DNA from: an uncultured virus (IMG/VR IMGVR_UViG_3300028888_000009) | Taxonomy: Duplodnaviria; Heunggongvirae; Uroviricota; Caudoviricetes | Length of the DNA stretch: 20,000 nucleotides | Strand: one strand, 5' to 3' | IMG/VR virus record: IMGVR_UViG_3300028888_000009 | In this document: piece by piece, positions 798 through 18,765 of the stretch | Position numbering within the stretch: the stretch's first letter is position 1 | How the letters are laid out: every line of letters begins with the position of its first letter | The notes under the pieces: model-generated | Databases searched by the model: none | What the model saw: the letters and a program-made list of their open reading frames with translations, nothing else | What the model was told of the DNA's origin: nothing | Program-made: the position numbers and the translations under genes

Positions 798-934
798 CGC
801 ACATTCCTTGTAATGAACTCCATTATCCCTTGCACATCGGCACATACCTCTGCCTCGTCCTTGTAGTCCTTGGAACGCAAGGCAGGCACTTCCTCCTCGC
901 CGTCTCTACGGCATGTAATCGTAACGTGTGTCAT
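794..934 (-). CDS. Small hypothetical protein (46 aa), not in the ORF track
   Basis: MTHVTITCRRDGEEEVPALRSKDYKDEAEVCADVQGIMEFITRNVR*. Coupled at both ends: TAATG with the HNH stop at 934 and ATGA with the next start at 797. Confidence 0.65.
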   Translation of the reverse strand: MTHVTITCRRDGEEEVPALRSKDYKDEAEVCADVQGIMEFITRNVR

Positions 935-1791
935 TATTGCTTCCTCCTTCTCTTTATCTCACCTATAACCTTTCCAATCTCTTTCATTTCTTCGTGTGTA
1001 AAATACTTGTTTCTTGCCGCATTGCATTCAACACAACACGGAACAACATTATCCATCGTATGACCCTTGTTGTTGTCTATCCTGTCGCAACCAATCCTCT
1101 TGTCGTCTCCACAATAGACGCATTTTTGAGTCAGTATGTTGTCAATCATCCATTCAATAGTGATGTCGCATGTATTAACGCCAAGTTTCTTGTCTCTGCA
1201 TTTATAAGATGAAATCATCTTAGAAGCCTTTGCTCTAACATTTACACCAGCGTCCTTGTAGTCTTTTGCCTTCTTATCATCTCTCTTCTTCTTGACACCA
1301 TATACAACCTCCTCTGGTGTATATTCTCTAACCTTGCTATAATACCTGATGGACATTGCGTTCCTTGGTATTCCCGTTTTCAGACTCCATTGTGTCAGGT
1401 TGAGTGTTTCATCGCCTATTGTTATGTATACACCAGCCTTCATATCAGCTGCGACCTCTTTTGTAACCCAAGCGTAGTTGTCAATACTAAACGGCTTACT
1501 TATGTCAAGCCGCCTTAGCACAAGGCCTTTCTCGTAACTTCCTACAACATCATTGTAAAATGTTCTAAAGTTTTTCCACCTCTCATCAATTCCAGCCTTC
1601 TTCCCTTTCTTGGTAAACATTATAGCCCGCCAAGAATTAAATATATATGGGTTTTCTTTCTTTAGGTCGCCGATGTAATCTGGTCTGAGTTTGGCACTTT
1701 CACGAAGAGACTCAGACTTCTTCTTCCTCTGTTCAAGAGGAAGGTCTTCGTGTCCTTTCACAAACTGTCCCTTCTCGTTCCTTAGTGCCAT
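934..1791 (-). CDS. HNH-family (homing-type) endonuclease with two HNH-like domains
   Basis: C-terminal CVYCG...DRIDNNKGHTMDNVVPCCVECN is a Zn-binding HNH motif. A central degenerate copy reads WKNFRTFYND..GLVLRRLDISKPFSIDNYAWVT. N-terminal RNEKGQFVKGH is NUMOD-like. Lower GC than neighbours (23/60 in 1561-1620). Confidence 0.8.
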   Translation of the reverse strand: MALRNEKGQFVKGHEDLPLEQRKKKSESLRESAKLRPDYIGDLKKENPYIFNSWRAIMFTKKGKKAGIDERWKNFRTFYNDVVGSYEKGLVLRRLDISKPFSIDNYAWVTKEVAADMKAGVYITIGDETLNLTQWSLKTGIPRNAMSIRYYSKVREYTPEEVVYGVKKKRDDKKAKDYKDAGVNVRAKASKMISSYKCRDKKLGVNTCDITIEWMIDNILTQKCVYCGDDKRIGCDRIDNNKGHTMDNVVPCCVECNAARNKYFTHEEMKEIGKVIGEIKRRRKQ

Positions 1792-1793
1792 AA

Positions 1794-2255
1794 TCAGACA
1801 ATTTCAATGGTTATTTCTTCTCCTCTATCACGGGCTGCAATAAGCAAGTCCATCAACTTATAGAATGTGTTGGCAGAGTTTATTACCTTGCCCTTGACTT
1901 TGTTCTCTCCTACAATCACACATCCAAGCGTGGAGTCTTGGTCTGTGCCAACATGAATTAGAACACCGCTATAACACGGTACACCTATCAAGCGCGGAAC
2001 TACGCCGCCATACTTCTTCGCCCAGTAACGATACCTGAACTTTGAAGACACGGTGTTCATGTCAATCTTGTACTTGCCGCAAGGGATTGCCGTTTCGCCT
2101 GGCACCTTAATCCGATTGATCTTGTTCGATGGCATATCGGAGGACAAACCTCTGTCCTTGTCCTCGATGGTGTCGCACACATACTTCCCGTCAACATACA
2201 AGCTGCCGATGGTGTACTTCTCACCCTTGTATCTTCTCCTTAGTTTAAGTTCCAT
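1794..2255 (-). CDS. DUF5675-like protein, putative endolysin (YkuD/L,D-transpeptidase-like His-Cys motif)
   Basis: MELKLRRRYKGEKYTIGSLYVDG..CDTIED, ETAIPCGKY and VLIHVG..STLGCVIVG motifs are typical of this family in Bacteroidetes phage lysis cassettes. Downstream of the holin. Confidence 0.75.
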   Translation of the reverse strand: MELKLRRRYKGEKYTIGSLYVDGKYVCDTIEDKDRGLSSDMPSNKINRIKVPGETAIPCGKYKIDMNTVSSKFRYRYWAKKYGGVVPRLIGVPCYSGVLIHVGTDQDSTLGCVIVGENKVKGKVINSANTFYKLMDLLIAARDRGEEITIEIV

Positions 2256-2922: not shown

Positions 2923-3417
2923 TTATTCTATTTCTTCTTCTATTTCTTCCTCCGCTTCTTCCTCTTTCGCTTCTATCGGTTCGGTAGGCTCAAGAACATC
3001 CTCAAAGTCGGGTCTACGGAAGATGCGAGCAATCAGCTTGATGATGTTGACTTTTTGCTTGATGCCCTTGTATTCTAAGTAGTTGTCGATGATGGACGAC
3101 AGCTCGATGATGCACACCACCGCCATGATGATGACCGACAGTAAGGGCAAGCCGAACACGCTGCCGAAGTTGATGCCAACAAGCGTTGCGATACTCAGCC
3201 AGCAGATATAGTCAACCAACTTGTTGAGACTTCTCCTCACGGCTCTTGACGGACGTATCTTCTCGCCTCGCTTTTTGGCTGCTGCGATACCGAATCTCAA
3301 ATCACCAAGGATTAGGATGACGGCCAGGATGAGAAACCACAGCATTTGCTGCCATCCTTCGATGAATGGCGACAGCACCGCCGCAGTGAAGCCTCCTATT
3401 ACATTTCTTTCGTTCAT
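2923..3417 (-). CDS. Phage holin (holin family 4-like)
   Basis: TM segments plus the signature 'GDLRFGIAAAKKRGEKIRPSRAVRRSLNKLVDY...IELSSIIDNY'. Acidic C-tail. AAGGAG precedes ATG 3417, and there is an alternative in-frame ATG at 3435. Confidence 0.8.
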   Translation of the reverse strand: MNERNVIGGFTAAVLSPFIEGWQQMLWFLILAVILILGDLRFGIAAAKKRGEKIRPSRAVRRSLNKLVDYICWLSIATLVGINFGSVFGLPLLSVIIMAVVCIIELSSIIDNYLEYKGIKQKVNIIKLIARIFRRPDFEDVLEPTEPIEAKEEEAEEEIEEEIE

Positions 3418-3435
3418 TGTCTTATCTCCTTTCAT

Positions 3436-4745: not shown

Positions 4746-6347
4746 TTAGTTTTCGATTATTGTGGCGAGGCCGTCCATGACGCTGACCTCGTATGACTTG
4801 CTTGCGTTGATTGTCGGTGCTGAGCCGCCAGCCCACGAAGTGATTGCGCTCGGCCATGTGATGGTTGGTGCGGTCGCTGGTGTCGTGAAAGTCCAGCAGT
4901 AGACGTGCGCCACCGTCAAATCGGTAGGCGTGTTCAAGGCTGGGAAGGTGGTGTCGCCGCTCAGCGTGCCGTACTGGTAGACCTTGTCGGCATCCATAGA
5001 TGCTGGGATGGTCGAGGCATCCACCACTGGAATTGGTGTTGCGAAGTCGCTTGCCTTCTTACCGCTGTCCGTGAGGTTGCCGTCGGAGTCAAGACCTGCG
5101 AGGTTGCCCGAGGTCGCTCCACCAACCTTGTCAGCCTTATTTTCAAGCAAATCATCAAAGGCTTGTCCGTTAGGACATAACGACACATATCTCCAATTTT
5201 GCGTATTTTCGTTCCACGAAAAAACAACGACATATCCGTCGACTTCGTAGTTGTTGAAGTTTACATACCTGCCGTTAGTTGTTGCGATGTAGAAATAGCG
5301 GTGGTCATCTCCGAATGTTGGTGAGTCTTGCGGTCTAACAATGCCTCCATAGAGGCATCCGTCTGCAAACATGGTCGAAAGAATGACATACATACCCCCG
5401 CTCTGTACGGGGTTTGTGCTGTTCTCGGTCGGTATCGCGTCTATCGTCAGCTCTGTCTGCAACCCGAGTTGCGCAGCAGTCTTGTTGCCACTCAGCGTGA
5501 CATTGTTGATTGACGGCTTGTTTGTAAGGTCATTATAGTTGGAAGTTCCACCTCCGCCTCCACTTTGGTTTACCCATTCAAGGTCATTGTCGGTATTGCT
5601 TTTCTTCGCAAGGACTTGCCCTGTCGTACCACCAGCAGGAACCATCTCCGCTTTCGTTGCGAGTTTGTTGGAAGAAGAAGCGTTGGAAGGTATCTTGTCT
5701 TCAATGGCCTTGCCTCTGTCACCAGGGAATGCCGTTGATGAGGTCTCGCCAAGAGCAAGGCTCTGCGAAATCTCAACGTAAGCACTGCCACTCCAACGAT
5801 AGGTCTTGTTGGTGTCAAGTGCCACATATATCTTACCGCTCTCCCCAGTGGCAGGGAACGAGGCGAGATTTGCATATTCCAGAACGTCGTCAACGTATGA
5901 AGGCAACTGCGACTGAGGAACCTTGCCCCCGCTATCGAGAGTTGCAACACCACCATTTGCACCTTTATCTGTGTCAGGAATAGCACCTACCTCACTTGCT
6001 GTATAGACTGGCTTTGTCTGAGCCTTAGCCCATGAAGGCACCGTTGGGTCGGTCTCGGTCTGCACGGCTGTATCTGCCTTACCCAAAGATGTTTGTACGG
6101 CAGACGCGAGGTCGGTCTTCGGGATGCCGCCAGACGGCTTGGAGTAAGCATTTGCAACCTTTGCTTTCTCAGTGTTGTTGTAGTCATTAGTTGAAAGGCC
6201 TTTACCAGAAACCTTATCCACCTTTCTATCCACCTCGTCAACGATGTTGTTGAGTACGGTGTTCATCTTCGCGCCAGTGATTTCACGTTGATGGTTGGTG
6301 CGTATGTTGTTTGCTATCCAAGTCTTTATGTCGGTGTACCAGCTCAT
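4746..6347 (-). CDS. Tail/whisker fibre-like structural protein (mosaic)
   Basis: Contains fibre modules KVDKVSGKGLSTNDY, ETDPTVPSWAK, NGGVATLDSGGKVPQSQLPSYVDDVLEY, GGTTGQVLAKKS, YNDLTNKPSINNVTLSGNKT and GNLAGLDSDGNLTDSGKK. N-terminal IRTN..EITG motif. Confidence 0.7.
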   Translation of the reverse strand: MSWYTDIKTWIANNIRTNHQREITGAKMNTVLNNIVDEVDRKVDKVSGKGLSTNDYNNTEKAKVANAYSKPSGGIPKTDLASAVQTSLGKADTAVQTETDPTVPSWAKAQTKPVYTASEVGAIPDTDKGANGGVATLDSGGKVPQSQLPSYVDDVLEYANLASFPATGESGKIYVALDTNKTYRWSGSAYVEISQSLALGETSSTAFPGDRGKAIEDKIPSNASSSNKLATKAEMVPAGGTTGQVLAKKSNTDNDLEWVNQSGGGGGTSNYNDLTNKPSINNVTLSGNKTAAQLGLQTELTIDAIPTENSTNPVQSGGMYVILSTMFADGCLYGGIVRPQDSPTFGDDHRYFYIATTNGRYVNFNNYEVDGYVVVFSWNENTQNWRYVSLCPNGQAFDDLLENKADKVGGATSGNLAGLDSDGNLTDSGKKASDFATPIPVVDASTIPASMDADKVYQYGTLSGDTTFPALNTPTDLTVAHVYCWTFTTPATAPTITWPSAITSWAGGSAPTINASKSYEVSVMDGLATIIEN

Positions 6348-12043: not shown

Positions 12044-13765
12044 TTAGGCAGTGATGGCACCGCTGTATTTCTCCCATTTGGTCTCCTGAGCATTCCACTT
12101 GACGATGGTGCCAGCGGAGAAACCAGTACCGCCAGTGTTGTCGTCATCGGTCTCAAGGTACACCAACAGGCCGTCAGCCCAAGTGGTAGGTGCGCCAGTG
12201 GCACCACCACCGACATACATCTTCGGAGTGGTTGCGGCTTGGCCGTTACCATCGGTGGTGAGCTTGCTGAGGGTGTAGTACACAGCACCGACCTTCTTGT
12301 TGAAGGTGTAGATGTCGCTGCGGTTGTCGTACACGGTGTCGATACCCATAATCTTGTCGGCGGGGCCAACGAGGATGGAGTTGTAGCCGCGAAGCATAAC
12401 GCAGTCAATCTTGATGTAACGGTCGCGGTCGGCCTCAACGGGTTCCTTGCCGCCCTTGCTCAAGTCTTCCTTGCTCTTCTCACCGACATTGGGCTTCTTC
12501 CAGTAGTGGACAGCGTTCTTCATGTCTATGATCATGGCGCAGTTCTCATAACCCATTTCGTCAAGGATGGGGCAGAGCTTGAAGTTCAGCGTACCGAAGG
12601 TGGTCTTGAATTGGGTAATGTCAACACCATACTTGGTTTGGGTAGCCATCACGTTGGTTTGGGCAACCTTGGTGAAGTCAAGGTTAAGCAGCTGTTCGAT
12701 GAAACCATAGGAGCAGTACACCTCGGCCTCGTTGGAAGCACTCCACTTGCCAAACTGCATCTTCGACATGGCGATGATGTCCTTGTAGGTAATGGCATCT
12801 GTGGTCACATACTTCATAAGGAGTTGGGTGAGGACACCTTCCTCATAGTAGCAGTTCAAGTCGCCAAGGATGTCGTCGTGTTCGACCAGCATACCGCCAG
12901 CACCAACGAGTTTGGTACGCTCGTTCTCCTGACGGAAGGTCATCATGGCATTGTCGGCGATGTCGTCAGTGAAGTAAGGCACGTTCTTTTTCTTAACCTT
13001 CCACTCTTTCTCAATAGTGGTGTTCATGATTTTCTTCTGCAAGTTGGCATCAACGAACACGGGCGTTTGGTTCTTCGGGCTAACAACCAGCTGCGCGGTG
13101 TGGCAAGCGGTGGCCAGCATTTGGAACTTGGTGCCAGCGGGGATGGCATCGTGAATCACATGGGCAGTGCCGCTCCAATAACCGTTGACGGGAACGCAGA
13201 TGATACCATCGGAAGCACGGCCAACGACTTTCAGCATCAGTTCGCCATCGGCAATGTTGTTGCTGTTGACGTACTTGTAGCCAGGAATGCCCTTGGCGAT
13301 GAAGGTCTGCGACTTGCCGAACATACGAGCGTTGGCGGCAGTCACGTTGTAACTCGAACCAGAGCCGATAGACAGGGTGATTTCAGTGGGCGTACCCGTA
13401 GCAGCAATGTTCTTGTTGTTAGTGCAGTCCATCAGAGGCGTAGCCATCGTCGGGTGCTTAACGGTGTAGTCCTTCACCTGCTTCTGACGAGCCAGTCTTT
13501 CAACGTCGGTCGAGAAGGTGTAGTTGAACGGGCGAAACTTGGTGACAAGTTCGTCGATCTCGTCGTCATTGATGTCGCTATCTTTGACGACCTTTTCGGT
13601 AGCAGGCGTACCCGTAAGGTCGGTGTTCAAGTCCTTAGTATCGGGGTCAGCCGGGCGGTCAATAGGCTCGTTGTCGCCAACGGCAACAGCAGCCATCGAG
13701 AGGTCGGCACCGAAAGCCAGTGCCAACATGGTCAGCATGAAGCTGAGTAGTCTGAATTTCTTCAT
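12044..13765 (-). CDS. Major capsid protein (HK97-fold presumed) with N-terminal hydrophobic leader and C-terminal extension
   Basis: Largest gene after the scaffold, with strong codon bias and a downstream terminator. Motifs FRPFNYTFSTD, ENERTKLVG, YYEEGVL, FKTTFGTLNF and CAMIID. Start MKKFRLL at ATG 13765 with an A-rich leader. Confidence 0.75.
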   Translation of the reverse strand: MKKFRLLSFMLTMLALAFGADLSMAAVAVGDNEPIDRPADPDTKDLNTDLTGTPATEKVVKDSDINDDEIDELVTKFRPFNYTFSTDVERLARQKQVKDYTVKHPTMATPLMDCTNNKNIAATGTPTEITLSIGSGSSYNVTAANARMFGKSQTFIAKGIPGYKYVNSNNIADGELMLKVVGRASDGIICVPVNGYWSGTAHVIHDAIPAGTKFQMLATACHTAQLVVSPKNQTPVFVDANLQKKIMNTTIEKEWKVKKKNVPYFTDDIADNAMMTFRQENERTKLVGAGGMLVEHDDILGDLNCYYEEGVLTQLLMKYVTTDAITYKDIIAMSKMQFGKWSASNEAEVYCSYGFIEQLLNLDFTKVAQTNVMATQTKYGVDITQFKTTFGTLNFKLCPILDEMGYENCAMIIDMKNAVHYWKKPNVGEKSKEDLSKGGKEPVEADRDRYIKIDCVMLRGYNSILVGPADKIMGIDTVYDNRSDIYTFNKKVGAVYYTLSKLTTDGNGQAATTPKMYVGGGATGAPTTWADGLLVYLETDDDNTGGTGFSAGTIVKWNAQETKWEKYSGAITA

Positions 13766-13797
13766 TTCTCTTTTATTTTGTGTTAGTAATTGAGTTC

Positions 13798-14733
13798 TCA
13801 TTCGTCAAATTCCATGTCTTCGTTACGGAAGGGGTTGCGCACCACCTTCTTGTTCTTCGGTTTCGGCTCGGGTGCCGTGCCGCCTTGTCCTCCGTCAAAG
13901 GTGGGAGGCAGGCCTTGCGGAGCCTTGCCTTTTGCCAAGGTAGCCTGCACCTTGGCGTTGTGTCCTTTCAGTTCACCCTCTTGTCTTGCATTCTCCACAT
14001 CGGCATCGTGGGTGGCTGCTTTTCTCATCATGTCAAACAGCTTGTCGCTGTACTTGCCTTTAAGTCCGTCCGTGTAGAAGTCGTTCATCTGCTGCCACAT
14101 CGCCGCCATCTCTTCCTCTCCGATGTCGTTCTTCTCACAATACTTTGAGAAGCGGCTGATGGTCTCCTTGATGTTGTTCTCGCCTTCCTCGCGGAGTTTC
14201 TTGCTCTCCTCCTGCCCTTTCAGGTAGTTGGTGTACGACTCCGACAGTTTCTTCGACTTCTCGGGGTCGTCGTAGGCTGCAAGGATGTCCTCTTTCGAGA
14301 ATCTTCCAAGCAGGCTCTCAAAGAAGTCCTTGCCGTCTGCCACATCAAGGAACATCCCACCAAACTGCGGATGCTCGCTGATGACCTTGCGGAAGTCGTC
14401 GTCGCTCTTCTTCAACTTGTCGTACTCCTTAGTGCGCTCGTTTTGACGCTTCCAGAACAATTCCTCGTCCGCTTCATCGTCATCCGGATAGTCCTTCTTG
14501 TGACGCTCATAGAACAAGTCCTTCTGCGATTTCTCCTTCTTCTCCTCCTTCGGCTCGTCCTTTTTCTCAGTCTCTTTCTTCTCGGTGTCAGCCTTCTCGG
14601 TTTTCACCTCGTTCTTTTGGGTGTTTTCGGTTGCCGTGTTGGTGGTCTGGGTGCCGCCACCTTCGTTGGTGGTTGCGCTGCCCGATGCACCATTTGCAGT
14701 TGCCGTTGCGCCCGTTGATGATGTACCTTCCAT
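13798..14733 (-). CDS. Capsid scaffolding-like protein
   Basis: Start MEGTSS (ATG 14733). Low-complexity T/G/E/K N-terminus and a highly charged helical body with ARQEGELKGHNAK. Directly upstream of the MCP. Confidence 0.65.
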   Translation of the reverse strand: MEGTSSTGATATANGASGSATTNEGGGTQTTNTATENTQKNEVKTEKADTEKKETEKKDEPKEEKKEKSQKDLFYERHKKDYPDDDEADEELFWKRQNERTKEYDKLKKSDDDFRKVISEHPQFGGMFLDVADGKDFFESLLGRFSKEDILAAYDDPEKSKKLSESYTNYLKGQEESKKLREEGENNIKETISRFSKYCEKNDIGEEEMAAMWQQMNDFYTDGLKGKYSDKLFDMMRKAATHDADVENARQEGELKGHNAKVQATLAKGKAPQGLPPTFDGGQGGTAPEPKPKNKKVVRNPFRNEDMEFDE

Positions 14734-14766
14734 GAGTTGTTGTTGTTTTGGTTTGTGTATTTGTGG

Positions 14767-14819
14767 GCAAAAGTGAACAACTTTAATGGGGATGAATCCG
14801 TAAAAAGTCACAAACGCAA
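14767..14819 (-). promoter_or_regulatory. Putative phage late promoter, copy 2 (drives scaffold-capsid operon)
   Basis: Minus strand TTGCGTTTGTGACTTTTTACGGATT...GTTGTTCACTTTTGC. Same motif and spacing as 9395-9447, 34 nt upstream of the scaffold ATG. Confidence 0.65.
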
Positions 14820-14857
14820 AGCCCTGCTTGAAAAAAATCGAACTTTTTTCTTACTTA

Positions 14858-14890
14858 TTTAGAATTATTCCAAATAAATATCTATCTTTG
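14858..14890 (+). promoter_or_regulatory. Bacteroidetes sigma-A type promoter for the terminase operon
   Basis: TATCTTTG at 14883-14890 matches the TAnnTTTG -7 consensus. TTTA at 14858-14861 is a -33-like element. AT-rich context, about 50 nt before ATG 14942. Confidence 0.65.
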
Positions 14891-14941
14891 CCCTCAAAAG
14901 TACGTATTACGTACTATCCTAAAACTGAACTATTCGACAAG

Positions 14942-15382
14942 ATGGCTGCGAAGAAACGAGAATCAGTCTACGAGTTCAAGGAACGCTACGACGACTTGAA
15001 CAGGGCGTACAAGGAAGCCCACAAGCAAGGTCACTACGAGACACAATACGAGGCGATGGCGGTGGCGGTCAACATGCCGTCATGCCGCTTCTGGGTGTCG
15101 GCAGAGAGGCTGTCGGAGGTGATAGCCGCCTTCGACGCCGGCAACGACATCCGTGTGAGCCACCGAAGTCCGCGCTACGAGATGTACGAGGAGCTTTACA
15201 AACGCTACCTCGCTTACAAGGCCGAGCATCCCGACATGAACAAGATTGACATCTGCGAGGAGGTCATCTGGCAACCCGCTCCGAAGTTCTATATGCGGCC
15301 TTCGTGGGGACTGAAGATTCTCTATCGTGGCCGTGAGAAGCGTCCACGTAAACACCACCACCGCAAAAACGAGACGGAATGA
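14942..15382 (+). CDS. Hypothetical protein, possible DNA-binding late-transcription regulator
   Basis: Start MAAKKR (ATG 14942). Two internally repeated helical units ending AVNMPSCRFWVS and VIWQPAPKFYMR, with a basic C-tail. First gene of the divergent operon. Confidence 0.55.
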   Translation: MAAKKRESVYEFKERYDDLNRAYKEAHKQGHYETQYEAMAVAVNMPSCRFWVSAERLSEVIAAFDAGNDIRVSHRSPRYEMYEELYKRYLAYKAEHPDMNKIDICEEVIWQPAPKFYMRPSWGLKILYRGREKRPRKHHHRKNETE

Positions 15383-15999
15383 AAGACTGGATTGGAAACG
15401 GAAACTCCATCTTCAAGACCTTGGGCGCATCCAACCACACTGACAAGGAGCGTGAGGCACAAGACTACTACGCCACCGACCCGATAGCGATTGACAAACT
15501 CGCCGCCGTGTACGATATTCCACATTATATATGGGAACCTGCCTGTGGTGAAGGACATTTAGCGAAAAGGTTAAAAGAATTAGGCCACGGAGTTATTAGC
15601 ACTGATTTATTTGATAGAGGTTATGGGCTTGATGGAGTTGACTTCTTGAAAAAAAACGATGTTCCTTTTGCCGCCCATGTTACAAAATGGGCAATCCTCA
15701 CCAATCCACCTTACAAGTATGCAACCGAATTTGTTTTACAAGCCTTGCAATTACTACCCAAAGGCGCACCCTGCATCATGCTATTGAAGACAACAGCATT
15801 GGAGGGCAAAGGCCGTTGGGAAAGGCTTTACAGCAAAGGCTACCTGAAAGCCGTGTACCAGTTCAGCGAGCGGCTGCTATGCGCCAAGAACGGTGACTTT
15901 GAGGGTATGAAGGCAGGCGGTGGCAGTGCCGTGTCCTACGCATGGTTCATCTTCGCCAACGACGGAAAGAACGACCCACCGAAAATCTATTGGATATGA
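15379..15999 (+). CDS. Orphan amino-DNA methyltransferase (N6-adenine/N4-cytosine, NPPY)
   Basis: DYYAT, SAM-binding IWEPACGEGH, STDL and catalytic ILTNPPY motifs, plus YAWFIF. No cognate restriction enzyme adjacent. Confidence 0.85.
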   Translation: MKDWIGNGNSIFKTLGASNHTDKEREAQDYYATDPIAIDKLAAVYDIPHYIWEPACGEGHLAKRLKELGHGVISTDLFDRGYGLDGVDFLKKNDVPFAAHVTKWAILTNPPYKYATEFVLQALQLLPKGAPCIMLLKTTALEGKGRWERLYSKGYLKAVYQFSERLLCAKNGDFEGMKAGGGSAVSYAWFIFANDGKNDPPKIYWI

Positions 16000-16490
16000 A
16001 GCATAACACAACCATATTATATATTATCGTATTAGCCTGCGCCTTCTTCGGCCTCAATGCCGAATGGGGCTACATGGCAGGCTCTCCGTGGTGGTCGCAC
16101 CTCACCTTCCACTTCGCCCACGGCAACATCTTCCACCTTGCCGCCAACCTCCTTGTCGCGTTTCTGCTTCTGCTCAACCGCAAAGACCCTTGGTGGCTGT
16201 GGCCAGTGTGCTATGCCGTGGCTACGCTTTGCTCCTTCTGCATCGCAACGAACAAGCCTACGGTGGGATTGTCTGGCCTGCTCCTCGCCTACTACGGCAT
16301 CATATGCTACAAAGACGGAGCAAAGTGGCGTTCCATGCTCTACACCTTGGGTTATATGGTGGTGTCGTGCCTCTTCGCCTCACGCCTCGCAATAGGATTG
16401 CATTTTATGTGCTTCGCCATCGGTGCCGCCATCGGCGGAGTGATGCTGTGGCTATCCAACATAGAGAGAAAGGAGAAGATGTATGGCTAA
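15996..16490 (+). CDS. Rhomboid-family intramembrane serine protease
   Basis: Start MKHNTT (ATG 15996, ATGA overlap). About six hydrophobic segments, HFAHGNIFHLAAN (HxxxxHxxxN), catalytic GLSG (GxSG) and catalytic His in IGLHFMCFAIG. Confidence 0.85.
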   Translation: MKHNTTILYIIVLACAFFGLNAEWGYMAGSPWWSHLTFHFAHGNIFHLAANLLVAFLLLLNRKDPWWLWPVCYAVATLCSFCIATNKPTVGLSGLLLAYYGIICYKDGAKWRSMLYTLGYMVVSCLFASRLAIGLHFMCFAIGAAIGGVMLWLSNIERKEKMYG

Positions 16491-18765
16491 CAAGACAAGC
16501 GATTTAGACCTTGAGGTGCAGGCGATGTGCGACGAGAACCGCCGCCGTATGCGCTACCTCCAAGCCGACTACGACCCCATCACGGGCGAAGGACTTGAAC
16601 TGCGCGACCCAAAGACCAACGAGAACCTGCACTACCGCAAGCGCATCGAGATACCCGACCATATCATCCCAGTCCAATGGCTTACCCTTGAAACAAGGCG
16701 CAATAACCTCTACAAGCAGGTGATTGAATGCGGCAGCATAGCCAAATACATTGAGAAGGTGCTGGACGAAGACCCCGAAGACGAGGAAATCATCCAAATG
16801 ATACAACGCTCCCTCGTTGAGATACGCTACCGTTTCGACTTCCCTCATTGGGCTTACATGAACTGGCGTGTCAAGGACAAACGAGGTATTGACGAGAGTG
16901 TGGTGCTGACCGAGGAAGAAGCCGAGCGCATCAAAGCCTCACGCATCGAAAGCGACGACTCTTCCCTTATCCCCTTCAAACTCAACCGCGCACAACTCGA
17001 CCTTGAAGCAGGTGTGGAGTCGCAACGTGTCAAAGGTCTACCCATCCGCATCATCTTCGCCAAGAACCGCCAATGCGGTGGCTCTACCTATGCCGAAGCG
17101 AAACTGGCTTGGATTCAGCTCTGCCACAAGAACGGATGGAACTCCGTCATCGTTGCGCAGGTGTCGGCTACAGCAAAGAAGATTCAGATGATGTACGAGA
17201 AAGCCATTGGCCACTACCCGCCTTGGCTACTTGGATTGCCCGACAACGAGCGGCTGCGCTTCTCGCAATATGGCCGTTCTGCCTCCGACTTCCGCATCAC
17301 CTACGGAACCACATCCAACCCACAGCCTGCCCGTGACGCGGTTATCTCCGTAGGCACATACAACAACCCCGACTCCCTGCCCGGTACGGATATGGCTCTC
17401 GCCCATATCTCCGAGTTGGCATTGTGGAAAAACACCGATGGCAAGTCACCCGAGGATTTGTTCAAGTCGGTGGCTGGTGGTATCATGAATATGCCGCTCA
17501 CCGCCATCATCATCGAAAGCACACCTCGTGGCAGCGGCAACTACTTCGCCGACGAATACGCAAGAGCCAAGTCGGGCAAGAGTGCCTACCTCGCCATGTT
17601 CATCAAACTGTCATCCAACCCCTACGACATTGAGCCTGTCAAGAGCCTCCGTGGTTTCATCCGTTGGATGATTGAGAACAAGAACAACCGCAACTGCCCC
17701 GAAGAGATATTTGGTCATAAGGGAAAGCCCTGCCGTGTGTCGGGTCAGTTCATCTGGAAGATGTGGGAGAACGGCTCCACCATTGAGAACATACATTGGT
17801 ATCTGCTCAAACACTTGGAGTTCAGCCGCCACTCCGATATGGCCTCCGAAGCACCCGTTGACGACATCGAAGCCTTTGCCAACACCGATTCGTTGGTGTT
17901 CGACATGTACGATGTGGATGCCTTGGAGAAGCAATGCGTCAAAGAGCCTATCAAGGTGGGCGACATCTACTCCGACTATACACTTGGCAAGGATACCTTG
18001 GAGAACTATGAGTTTGAGGAACGACCGGGCGGCACGATGAAGATTTGGGAAGAGCCTAACCCCGTCAAGATGACCAACCAATATATCGTGGTGGTGGATA
18101 TAGGCTACTTCTCTGCCAAGGCCGACTGGTCTATCATCCGTGTCGTTGACCGCTCCGAGGTGGCCAGCGGTGGCATGGAGAAGACTGTCTTGCTATGGCA
18201 TGGGCATATCCCCCACGATTACCTTGCATGGAAAGCCGTGCAGGTGGCCAAGTGGTACAACAACGCCCTGCTTGTCTTTGAGAGCAACACGCTTGAAAAG
18301 GAAAGGAACAGAGAAAACACGGTTGTAGTTGTTGACGACCTTGGCAACGAGTTGAACTACATCCTTGAAATCATAGACTACTGCTACGACAACACCTACC
18401 TACGCCGTGAGTCGCAGGCACAAGATGTGAATGGTGGTGGCGGCAAACTGGTTGTCGGTTTCCACACCAACAAGAAGACCAAGCCAGGCATCGTACGCAC
18501 CCTCGAAGCCGCCATCCGCGACAAGGACTTCATCGAACCCGACAAGGAGACCATTGAGGAGTTCCGTCACTACGAGCGCAAGCAGAACGGCTCATACGGA
18601 GCAATGGCAGGCTGCAAGGACGACCGCCTCATGACCATCGGCATTGCCTTATACATATCCCGCACCCTTGACGGAGGTCTGCCTGCACCAAGGCGCAAAG
18701 ACCTTCCGCAAGAGAAGGAGAAGCAACACGACTACCACAACACCCACGGAGAAGCATCATTCTAA
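16483..18765 (+). CDS. terL: Terminase large subunit
   Basis: FKLNRAQ (Q-motif), KNRQCGGST (Walker A, KxRQxGxST type), AHISE (Walker B), IIESTPRG (coupling motif), RNase H-like VVVDIG..ADWS and KDDRLM. Confidence 0.9.
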   Translation: MANKTSDLDLEVQAMCDENRRRMRYLQADYDPITGEGLELRDPKTNENLHYRKRIEIPDHIIPVQWLTLETRRNNLYKQVIECGSIAKYIEKVLDEDPEDEEIIQMIQRSLVEIRYRFDFPHWAYMNWRVKDKRGIDESVVLTEEEAERIKASRIESDDSSLIPFKLNRAQLDLEAGVESQRVKGLPIRIIFAKNRQCGGSTYAEAKLAWIQLCHKNGWNSVIVAQVSATAKKIQMMYEKAIGHYPPWLLGLPDNERLRFSQYGRSASDFRITYGTTSNPQPARDAVISVGTYNNPDSLPGTDMALAHISELALWKNTDGKSPEDLFKSVAGGIMNMPLTAIIIESTPRGSGNYFADEYARAKSGKSAYLAMFIKLSSNPYDIEPVKSLRGFIRWMIENKNNRNCPEEIFGHKGKPCRVSGQFIWKMWENGSTIENIHWYLLKHLEFSRHSDMASEAPVDDIEAFANTDSLVFDMYDVDALEKQCVKEPIKVGDIYSDYTLGKDTLENYEFEERPGGTMKIWEEPNPVKMTNQYIVVVDIGYFSAKADWSIIRVVDRSEVASGGMEKTVLLWHGHIPHDYLAWKAVQVAKWYNNALLVFESNTLEKERNRENTVVVVDDLGNELNYILEIIDYCYDNTYLRRESQAQDVNGGGGKLVVGFHTNKKTKPGIVRTLEAAIRDKDFIEPDKETIEEFRHYERKQNGSYGAMAGCKDDRLMTIGIALYISRTLDGGLPAPRRKDLPQEKEKQHDYHNTHGEASF

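Follow-up and report, generated by a model that had tools for sequence, protein, structure and literature searches.

Why would a tailed phage place a signal-like leader on its major capsid protein (MCP) and encode a rhomboid intramembrane protease beside its terminase? Tailed-phage capsid assembly is regarded as cytoplasmic, and capsids are matured, if at all, by soluble proteases inside the procapsid. The question is raised by a 20,000-nucleotide stretch of DNA (hereafter the window) from an uncultured member of the Caudoviricetes, IMG/VR record IMGVR_UViG_3300028888_000009. An earlier note, made from the letters of the window alone, had drawn attention to both features and proposed that procapsids assemble tethered to the inner membrane and are released or matured by the rhomboid. 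Across related phages, we found that leader and rhomboid occur together and that, with one exception for the rhomboid, both are gone in a leaderless sister clade. A functional link between them is well supported by this pattern of presence and absence, and we consider it slightly more likely than not that the rhomboid processes the MCP leader. The features at issue are as follows:

12044-13765, minus strand: MCP of HK97 fold and SU10/DUF5309 type, 573 amino acids (aa) from MKKF, assigned by PF17236, AlphaFold2 with Foldseek, and 202 homologues
13676..13765, minus strand: MCP leader, residues 1-30, with a basic n-region (MKKFR), a hydrophobic helix and the motif L11, A15, G19 ... M24, A25
13541..13675, minus strand: linker, residues 31-75, acidic and rich in proline, which joins the leader to the capsid N-arm (KFRPF)
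15996-16490, plus strand: rhomboid intramembrane serine protease, 164 aa with six transmembrane helices, assigned by PF01694, a GlpG profile match, and AlphaFold2 with Foldseek
16119-16148, plus strand: rhomboid codons for H42, H47 and N51
16272-16274, plus strand: rhomboid codon for S93
16401-16403, plus strand: rhomboid codon for H136

Leader and rhomboid across related phages

Leader-bearing relatives were examined as 79 viral records in two batches (40 and 39), each whole record being searched with PF01694. A rhomboid was present in 71 of them (36/40 and 35/39), including all 26 records that were at least 90% complete (14/14 and 12/12). Many of the matches in the leader clade fall below the Pfam cut-off, yet they are single open reading frames (ORFs) of 150-235 aa, and the rhomboids inspected in L082-L086 score 114-125 bits against a phage-rhomboid profile, and their catalytic residues are invariant when aligned. 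By our own reading of locus and contig coordinates, each of the eight misses is a fragment (4-86% complete) ending short of the expected position. Among the leader-bearing relatives surveyed, a leader without a rhomboid was never seen where that position was covered. The same module, with a leader-bearing MCP, a scaffold and a divergent run of small protein, rhomboid and terL (the large terminase subunit), is carried by the cultured Bacteroides phages BS-TP4 and BF1-TP2, whose MCPs are only ~24% identical to that of the window where alignable. A further clade with MCPs of 450 aa carries leader and rhomboid in all five loci examined (L215-L218 and L219).

A profile search of 1.84 billion representatives gave 641 clusters of the family at 50% identity. 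Among the top 150 of these clusters was a clade of MCPs that start MAE... and have no leader. We sampled 80 viral loci of this clade, in 77 of which the N-terminus was readable, the other three being cut by contig ends. The leader was absent from all 77, the frame being closed within 0-402 nucleotides (nt) upstream (L134 aside, within ≤165 nt) and no hydrophobic segment being present. PF01694 matched 0/40 and 1/40 of the records, and none of the complete ones (0/12 and 0/8); the phage-rhomboid profile likewise matched 1 of the 80 loci, and the small gene that neighbors the rhomboid elsewhere was kept in 75. This small gene abuts or overlaps terL in 3 of 13 leaderless loci inspected (L093, L094, and L108), two of which have the coordinates:

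L093:8477-8980: small gene, directly upstream of or overlapping terL
L108:8702-9133: small gene, directly upstream of or overlapping terL

The rhomboid slot is thus cleanly empty in these loci. In the nearest leader-bearing clade (P0160 type, whose MCP is 46% identical to that of leaderless P0171), the rhomboid adjoins the small gene in 42/42 loci, and the same search also returned three leaderless loci that have the small gene and no rhomboid. Leader and rhomboid are under purifying selection and, in these comparisons, are gained and lost together. The earlier note had named their co-occurrence as a check, and the two do co-occur in the near-complete records (26/26) and are lost as a pair from the sister clade.

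We then placed this loss on a FastTree phylogeny of 149 MCPs, for which proteins of <400 aa were excluded, the leader and linker were trimmed, 409 columns were kept, and the root was set at the midpoint. The leaderless clade (n = 24, support 1.0) is sister to a leader-bearing clade (n = 8), and the pair (support 1.0) is nested in the leader-bearing family; the event is therefore a loss, and parsimony on the midpoint-rooted tree gives a leader-bearing root. Several leaderless singletons elsewhere on the tree could represent further losses or gene-calling artefacts. For three of these (P0157, P0142, and P0266), no relative was found in the viral collection, and the relatives retrieved with a fourth, P0247 (33-44% identity), all bear a leader.

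The leader on the major capsid protein

The N-terminus of the window MCP reads MRTQLLTQNKRE-MKKFRLLSFMLTMLALAFGADLSMAAVAVGDNEP... (minus-strand ORF 12044..13801, 585 aa), exactly the basic, hydrophobic, and small-residue leader that had been described from the letters. We take the ATG at 13765 (MKKF) as the start; it has an A-rich context and was also chosen by gene callers in the 99%-identical homologue P0001. An alternative in-frame ATG upstream, at 13801 (585 aa), overlaps the scaffold stop as ATGA. The protein scores 35.5 bits against Pfam SU10_MCP (PF17236; cut-off 24.1). Its AlphaFold2 model has a mean predicted local distance difference test (pLDDT) score of 70.4, with residues 6-17 forming a helix and 19-77 disordered, and the best Foldseek match of the model is the Vibrio phage VP1 capsid (9in6, E 9e-18), followed by phicrAss001, SU10, and HK97 (7qoh, E 5e-11; 7z46 [SU10], E 6.5e-7; 1ohg [HK97], E 2.9e-6). 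By sequence, the MCP gave 0 matches to solved structures. Profile, fold, and position in the head module together identify it as an HK97-fold capsid protein.

A homologue search with the MCP yielded 202 proteins, and the N-terminus was assessed in the 120 that were listed. The leader, defined as a best 15-residue hydropathy of at least 2.0, was found in 115 of these 120; of the remaining five, two begin inside the leader, two begin at MA, and one is a fragment. Conservation was computed on 90 non-redundant N-termini and reached 0.89 for L11, 0.89 for A15, 0.97 for G19, 0.83 for M24, and 0.96 for A25, the values for G19 and A25 equalling those of the best MCP core residues. A 19-residue Kyte-Doolittle window exceeds 1.6 in 88 of the 90. 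L11, A15, and G19 are spaced i, i+4, i+8 and so lie on one helix face as a small-xxx-small packing motif, which is followed by a Gly-rich break and then Met-Ala, giving the consensus LxxxAxxxG....MA. In the 450-aa clade, the leader is the best-conserved segment of the protein (mean top-residue frequency 0.65, compared with 0.47 in the body and 0.33 in the linker) and the only stretch conserved enough to serve for the locus search. Because homologues with as little as 28% identity retain the leader, it is neither a chance feature nor a mis-called start. Judged by this conservation, it is sequence-specific, unlike ordinary signal peptides, for which we know of no conservation of this degree. The acidic linker noted behind the leader was also seen; it is predicted to be disordered (pLDDT 28-44), and its conservation is poor except for D42, D49-L50-x-G52, E69, and D71.

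A profile of the leader gave 83 matches, all to MCPs, with the best non-MCP ORF at E 0.88, and found the motif on no other protein in the loci. The alternative rhomboid substrates suggested in the earlier note (a glycine-zipper QCCC protein, the holin, or host membrane proteins) drew no support from this search. One weak profile match, to a small protein at L219:9857-10252 (plus strand), was considered as a second leader carrier and rejected, as it is an ordinary lipoprotein signal that is hydrophobic and ends LASC.

Conservation of M24 (83%) raises a further explanation, in which the leader is never removed, or two starts are used so that the long form is a minor membrane-bound product and the shell is built from a short form starting at M24. 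Leaderless relatives begin MAE or MGE, the leader of the sister clade ends ...GGGVLMAEATV with the same tripeptide, and some gene callers began homologues P0042 and P0070 at this Met. To compare start contexts, we examined the 20 nt preceding each start in 39 distinct N-termini. Ahead of MKK, this stretch is 82% AT and 54% A, as is usual for starts in Bacteroidota, whereas ahead of the internal M24 it is GC-rich (39% AT, 11% A). The long MKK form is therefore the main translation product, and initiation at M24 is not supported by its start-codon context. Furthermore, the exact MAE-MAE correspondence cannot be fixed within the variable linker, and the loss of the rhomboid together with the leader would be left unexplained. 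We regard an unremoved leader or a second start as very improbable.

The phage rhomboid

The window rhomboid has the complete set of catalytic motifs, HxxxxHxxxN (H42, H47, N51), GLSG (S93), and H136, and its 3′ end overlaps the terL ATG (16483) by 8 nt, as the earlier note had read from the sequence. Its likely start is the ATG at 15996, which overlaps the stop of the preceding methyltransferase-like gene as ATGA. Against Pfam Rhomboid (PF01694), the protein scores 22.6 bits, equal to the cut-off of 22.6, and that of L005, a close relative, reaches 27.1 bits. Residues H42, H47, N51, G91, S93, G101, and H136 are invariant across 15 of 15 phage rhomboids that share 21-68% identity, and a profile of these 15 matches Escherichia coli GlpG structures (E 3.7e-7) with the GLSG and AH motifs aligned. 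The AlphaFold2 model (pLDDT 86.1, predicted TM-score 0.82) has seven helices, six of them long, and its 34 best Foldseek matches are without exception GlpG, although the E-values are weak (0.01-0.14; TM-scores of 0.5-0.7). We conclude that the rhomboid is a conserved core gene with intact catalytic residues and predicted proteolytic activity. Assignment as a rhombosortase (TIGR03902) was rejected, since the score of 26.5 bits lies far from the cut-off of 84 and the leader is N-terminal, whereas the GlyGly-CTERM signal is C-terminal.

How the rhomboid may act on the leader

The pairing of leader and co-lost protease points to an undescribed membrane step in tailed-phage head building. We propose that the MCP would be made as a precursor whose N-terminal 25-30 residues act as a sequence-specific, putatively membrane-inserting leader. 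The rhomboid gene lies between a small-terminase-like gene and terL, and its expression probably goes along with that of the packaging genes. The protease would act on this leader, either by cutting near the conserved M24-A25 or by disposing of it, and leader-free MCP would then build cytoplasmic procapsids with the scaffold. Loop charges of the rhomboid, as we read them, suggest that both its termini are inside, as is usual (N-in/C-in), and that its active site opens toward the periplasm; M24-A25 would then lie near this site. Phages of the leaderless sister clade manage without the step, and the role of the leader would for this reason be regulation or evasion (timing, localization, or hiding MCP from cytoplasmic immune sensors) and not structure. 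That this large Bacteroidales tailed-phage lineage routes its MCP through a membrane-inserted precursor matured by a virus-encoded rhomboid is a proposal that we advance tentatively, at a little under an even chance.

The membrane-tethered procapsid put forward in the earlier note faces two problems. In procapsids built of HK97-fold proteins, the N-termini are normally directed inward, and the charge bias of the leader is of the export type; the putative tethering model conflicts with both. It would be more economical for the precursor to be held at, or targeted to, the membrane before assembly and for the rhomboid cut to free assembly-competent MCP. The earlier note had also recognized no prohead protease in the scaffold-MCP unit, and our search for prohead protease families found none in the whole window. 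Elsewhere, PF04586 was absent from the records of all five relatives searched, and no prohead protease was found among the 58 scanned ORFs of G007 (the complete, 58.8-kb record of L005, with terminal repeats), its 4,596-aa ORF being unscanned. The portal of G007 is P22-like, and P22-type heads use a scaffold and no maturation protease, so the missing prohead protease is weak evidence. The giant ORF of G007 lies at 15909-29699, and BS-TP4 and BF1-TP2 also carry genes of 8-16 kb.

Several observations weigh against processing of the leader by the rhomboid. The window rhomboid reaches the Pfam cut-off only just, and in many relatives the rhomboid falls short of it. In evolutionary terms, the co-loss amounts essentially to a single event, which shared ancestry could produce; because kin share labels, the main contrast counts as one strong event and not as 80 independent ones. 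There is also one rhomboid without a leader, in L130, a record classed as a provirus and 62% complete:

L130:8158-8643, minus strand: rhomboid
L130:10001-11515, plus strand: leaderless MCP

This rhomboid is intact (HxxxxHxxxN, GLSG, and His; 63.9 bits) and sits next to the small gene, and the L130 MCP lies deep inside the leaderless clade on the tree. It is only 21% identical to the rhomboid of the nearest leader-bearing clade and is therefore not a recent copy from there; L130 could be a mosaic or a re-acquisition. A rhomboid can thus persist, or be useful, without the leader, which speaks against strict one-to-one dependence. A protease-substrate relation allows this direction, in that the protease may linger or be re-acquired without its substrate, and the asymmetry (rhomboid without leader once, the reverse never) is the pattern that a substrate depending on its protease would give.

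L130 and the single co-loss are also what would be expected if the two features were independent, the rhomboid cutting a different membrane protein of phage or host (one with a part in lysis timing, superinfection exclusion, or host takeover) and tracking the leader only by ancestry. In keeping with this, the rhomboid of the abundant 70-77 kb clade is found past the lysis genes, ~11 kb from the MCP and not beside terL, and a rhomboid is reportedly among the genes of Stenotrophomonas phages DLP5 and DLP3. Independence is harder to reconcile with the fact that it is exactly the leaderless clade that has lost the gene from its slot between the small gene and terL, with the rest of the module kept, or with its retention in every complete leader-bearing genome (26/26) despite MCP identity as low as 28%. 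It also leaves the confinement of the leader motif to MCPs within the loci as a difficulty. We consider independence of the two features unlikely.

The remaining points against processing by the rhomboid concern membrane orientation and the choice of protease. By the positive-inside rule, the charge bias across a hydrophobic segment predicts its orientation. The N-flank of the leader averages a net charge of +2.5 (positive in 85/90) and the following 20 residues average -3.6 (negative in 90/90); N-in/C-out is therefore predicted, which would export the MCP body. Classical rhomboid substrates such as TatA are N-out, and the predicted leader reverses that direction. Exported protein cannot be the building material of a capsid into which a cytoplasmic terminase packages DNA. 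In addition, the leader has the n-h-c layout, positive n-region, and small -1 residue of a Sec-type signal (A25 is 96% conserved), and host signal peptidase I would suit such a layout, with its small residues ahead of the mature part, just as well.

Signal peptidase I might then remove the leader, with the rhomboid acting only later, for example by clearing thousands of leftover leader peptides from the membrane as a signal-peptide peptidase does, or having no role in the cut. The canonical layout (basic n-region, 9-15-residue core, Gly-rich break, and small end residues MA or AMA) and a charge bias typical of exported proteins suit this explanation, and a rhomboid with a clean-up role would still account for the co-loss. 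Set against this are a leader conservation far above that expected of a generic signal peptide and the frequent Met at -3 (GGGMMA), which fits the signal peptidase rule poorly. The export paradox for a capsid protein remains here as well. Removal by signal peptidase I accordingly strikes us as improbable.

Comparison with known systems

The window rhomboid shares with GlpG (E. coli and Haemophilus influenzae) and AarA (Providencia), of family S54 (PDB 2ic8, 2nr9, 4qo0), the six-helix transmembrane core, the H-x4-H-x3-N of TM2, the GxSG of TM4, and the His of TM6. Unlike these enzymes, it is phage-encoded and minimal (164 aa without a cytoplasmic domain), has a short L1 loop and no evident WR motif, and belongs to an operon of head and packaging genes. 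AarA acts on the small, membrane-inserted TatA by trimming its N-terminus, whereas the substrate proposed here is a 573-aa capsid protein with a predicted N-in orientation, the reverse of TatA. In PINK1-PARL, a cut by a mitochondrial rhomboid in an N-terminal anchor frees a large cytosolic domain, and the T4 prohead starts on the inner membrane, attached through the portal vertex only. Both are conceptual precedents, for release by a rhomboid and for a start at the membrane, respectively, and neither has an MCP leader.

As in HK97 (gp4, with its delta domain and Peptidase_S78) and T4 (gp21), an N-terminal extension of the MCP is combined with a phage protease in the head module, and in at least some relatives the extension is absent from the working shell. 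The rhomboid differs from these prohead proteases in belonging to another protease class and in residing in the membrane rather than being packed inside the procapsid. The extension, too, is a hydrophobic, signal-like leader of 25-30 residues, unlike the ~100-residue coiled-coil scaffold domain of the HK97 delta. With Sec signal peptides, the leader shares n-h-c architecture, positive charge in the N-flank, acidity early in the mature region, and small end residues, but it is found on a protein needed in the cytoplasm, is conserved across 28% identity, and tracks a dedicated phage protease. The rhombosortase/GlyGly-CTERM system likewise joins a rhomboid-family enzyme to a sorting signal of Gly motif, hydrophobic helix, and basic cluster; the phage leader, by contrast, is N-terminal with these elements in mirror order, and the window rhomboid falls far below the TIGR03902 cut-off. 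Among HK97-fold proteins, the cEnc encapsulins of anammox bacteria are reported to have a shell protomer predicted to carry an N-terminal translocation signal (PMC11664910). There the whole shell is thought to lie inside the target compartment, which is impossible for a DNA-packaging phage head.

Layout of the window

The window covers structural and packaging genes of the phage, with two minus-strand head genes and, divergent from them, four plus-strand genes. Besides the MCP and rhomboid, its genes include:

13798-14811, minus strand: scaffold-like protein, directly upstream of the MCP (phrog_22323 at E 1e-27)
14939-15382, plus strand: small conserved protein, phrog_27246 (ORF open from 14828)
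15379-15999, plus strand: DNA methyltransferase-like gene (phrog_799 at E 2.5e-52), inserted between the small protein and the rhomboid
16483-18765, plus strand: terL, large terminase subunit (phrog_2 at E 2.6e-14)
934-1791, minus strand: HNH/endonuclease VII-like gene, left end of the window
1794-2255, minus strand: DUF5675 protein, left end of the window
2923-3435, minus strand: Phage_holin_4_1 holin, left end of the window
4746-6347, minus strand: 533-aa protein, of which residues 95-255 match domains common to PHROGs labelled peptidase, head decoration, and minor tail

The scaffold-like gene keeps its place before the MCP in relatives, and terL is located 2.7 kb from the MCP. With the exception of the 70-77 kb clade, leader-bearing phages have the rhomboid wedged between the small protein and terL. 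The small phrog_27246 protein is conserved in all clades; it is homologous to the gene immediately upstream of the rhomboid in BS-TP4 (E 7e-27) and to the gene in the same place in a distant clade (E 2e-7). Its position in leaderless phages, directly upstream of terL or overlapping it, makes it the probable small terminase. A role as a dedicated partner of the rhomboid was ruled out, since the protein is kept in 75/80 loci of the rhomboid-less clade and abuts terL there. The methyltransferase-like gene is missing at this position in the close relatives L004 and L005 and in BS-TP4. As for the 533-aa protein, it looks like a repeated surface domain and not a prohead protease.

Hosts, literature, and implications

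Hosts of the lineage are Bacteroides, Segatella, and Prevotella. Among MCP matches in genome or metagenome-assembled genome (MAG) records, 12 of 14 are from Bacteroidales (Bacteroidaceae, Segatella/Prevotella, and Tannerellaceae), and one genome match lies within a 254-kb Prevotella contig. The contigs of L222 and L225 are in MAG bins labelled Bacilli and Oscillospiraceae, for which mis-binning is likely.

A literature search found no paper linking a phage rhomboid to a capsid leader, and none pairing wording for a phage- or virus-encoded rhomboid with “rhomboid protease.” A passage search of the paper describing BS-TP4 and BF1-TP2 found no mention of the rhomboid in its text, and a 2025 review of rhomboids contains none of the words phage, viral, or virus. 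For DUF5309/SU10 MCPs and for MCPs with an N-terminal signal peptide, nothing relevant was among the matches listed.

If true, a signal-like MCP leader tied to an intramembrane protease would add a membrane step to the capsid pathway. Among viral rhomboids, this one would be the first to have its substrate assigned, and no HK97-fold capsid protein would have had a membrane-dependent maturation step before. The natural substrates of bacterial-type rhomboids are, to our knowledge, mostly unknown, and the leader-bearing MCP would provide these enzymes with a clear and abundant candidate. The hypothesis is genetically testable, given the cultured phages BS-TP4, BF1-TP2, and BKO1-TP3 and a sister clade that has neither leader nor rhomboid. 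The lineage in which such a step would operate is common in human-gut metagenomes, where its MCP family comprises 641 clusters at 50% identity.

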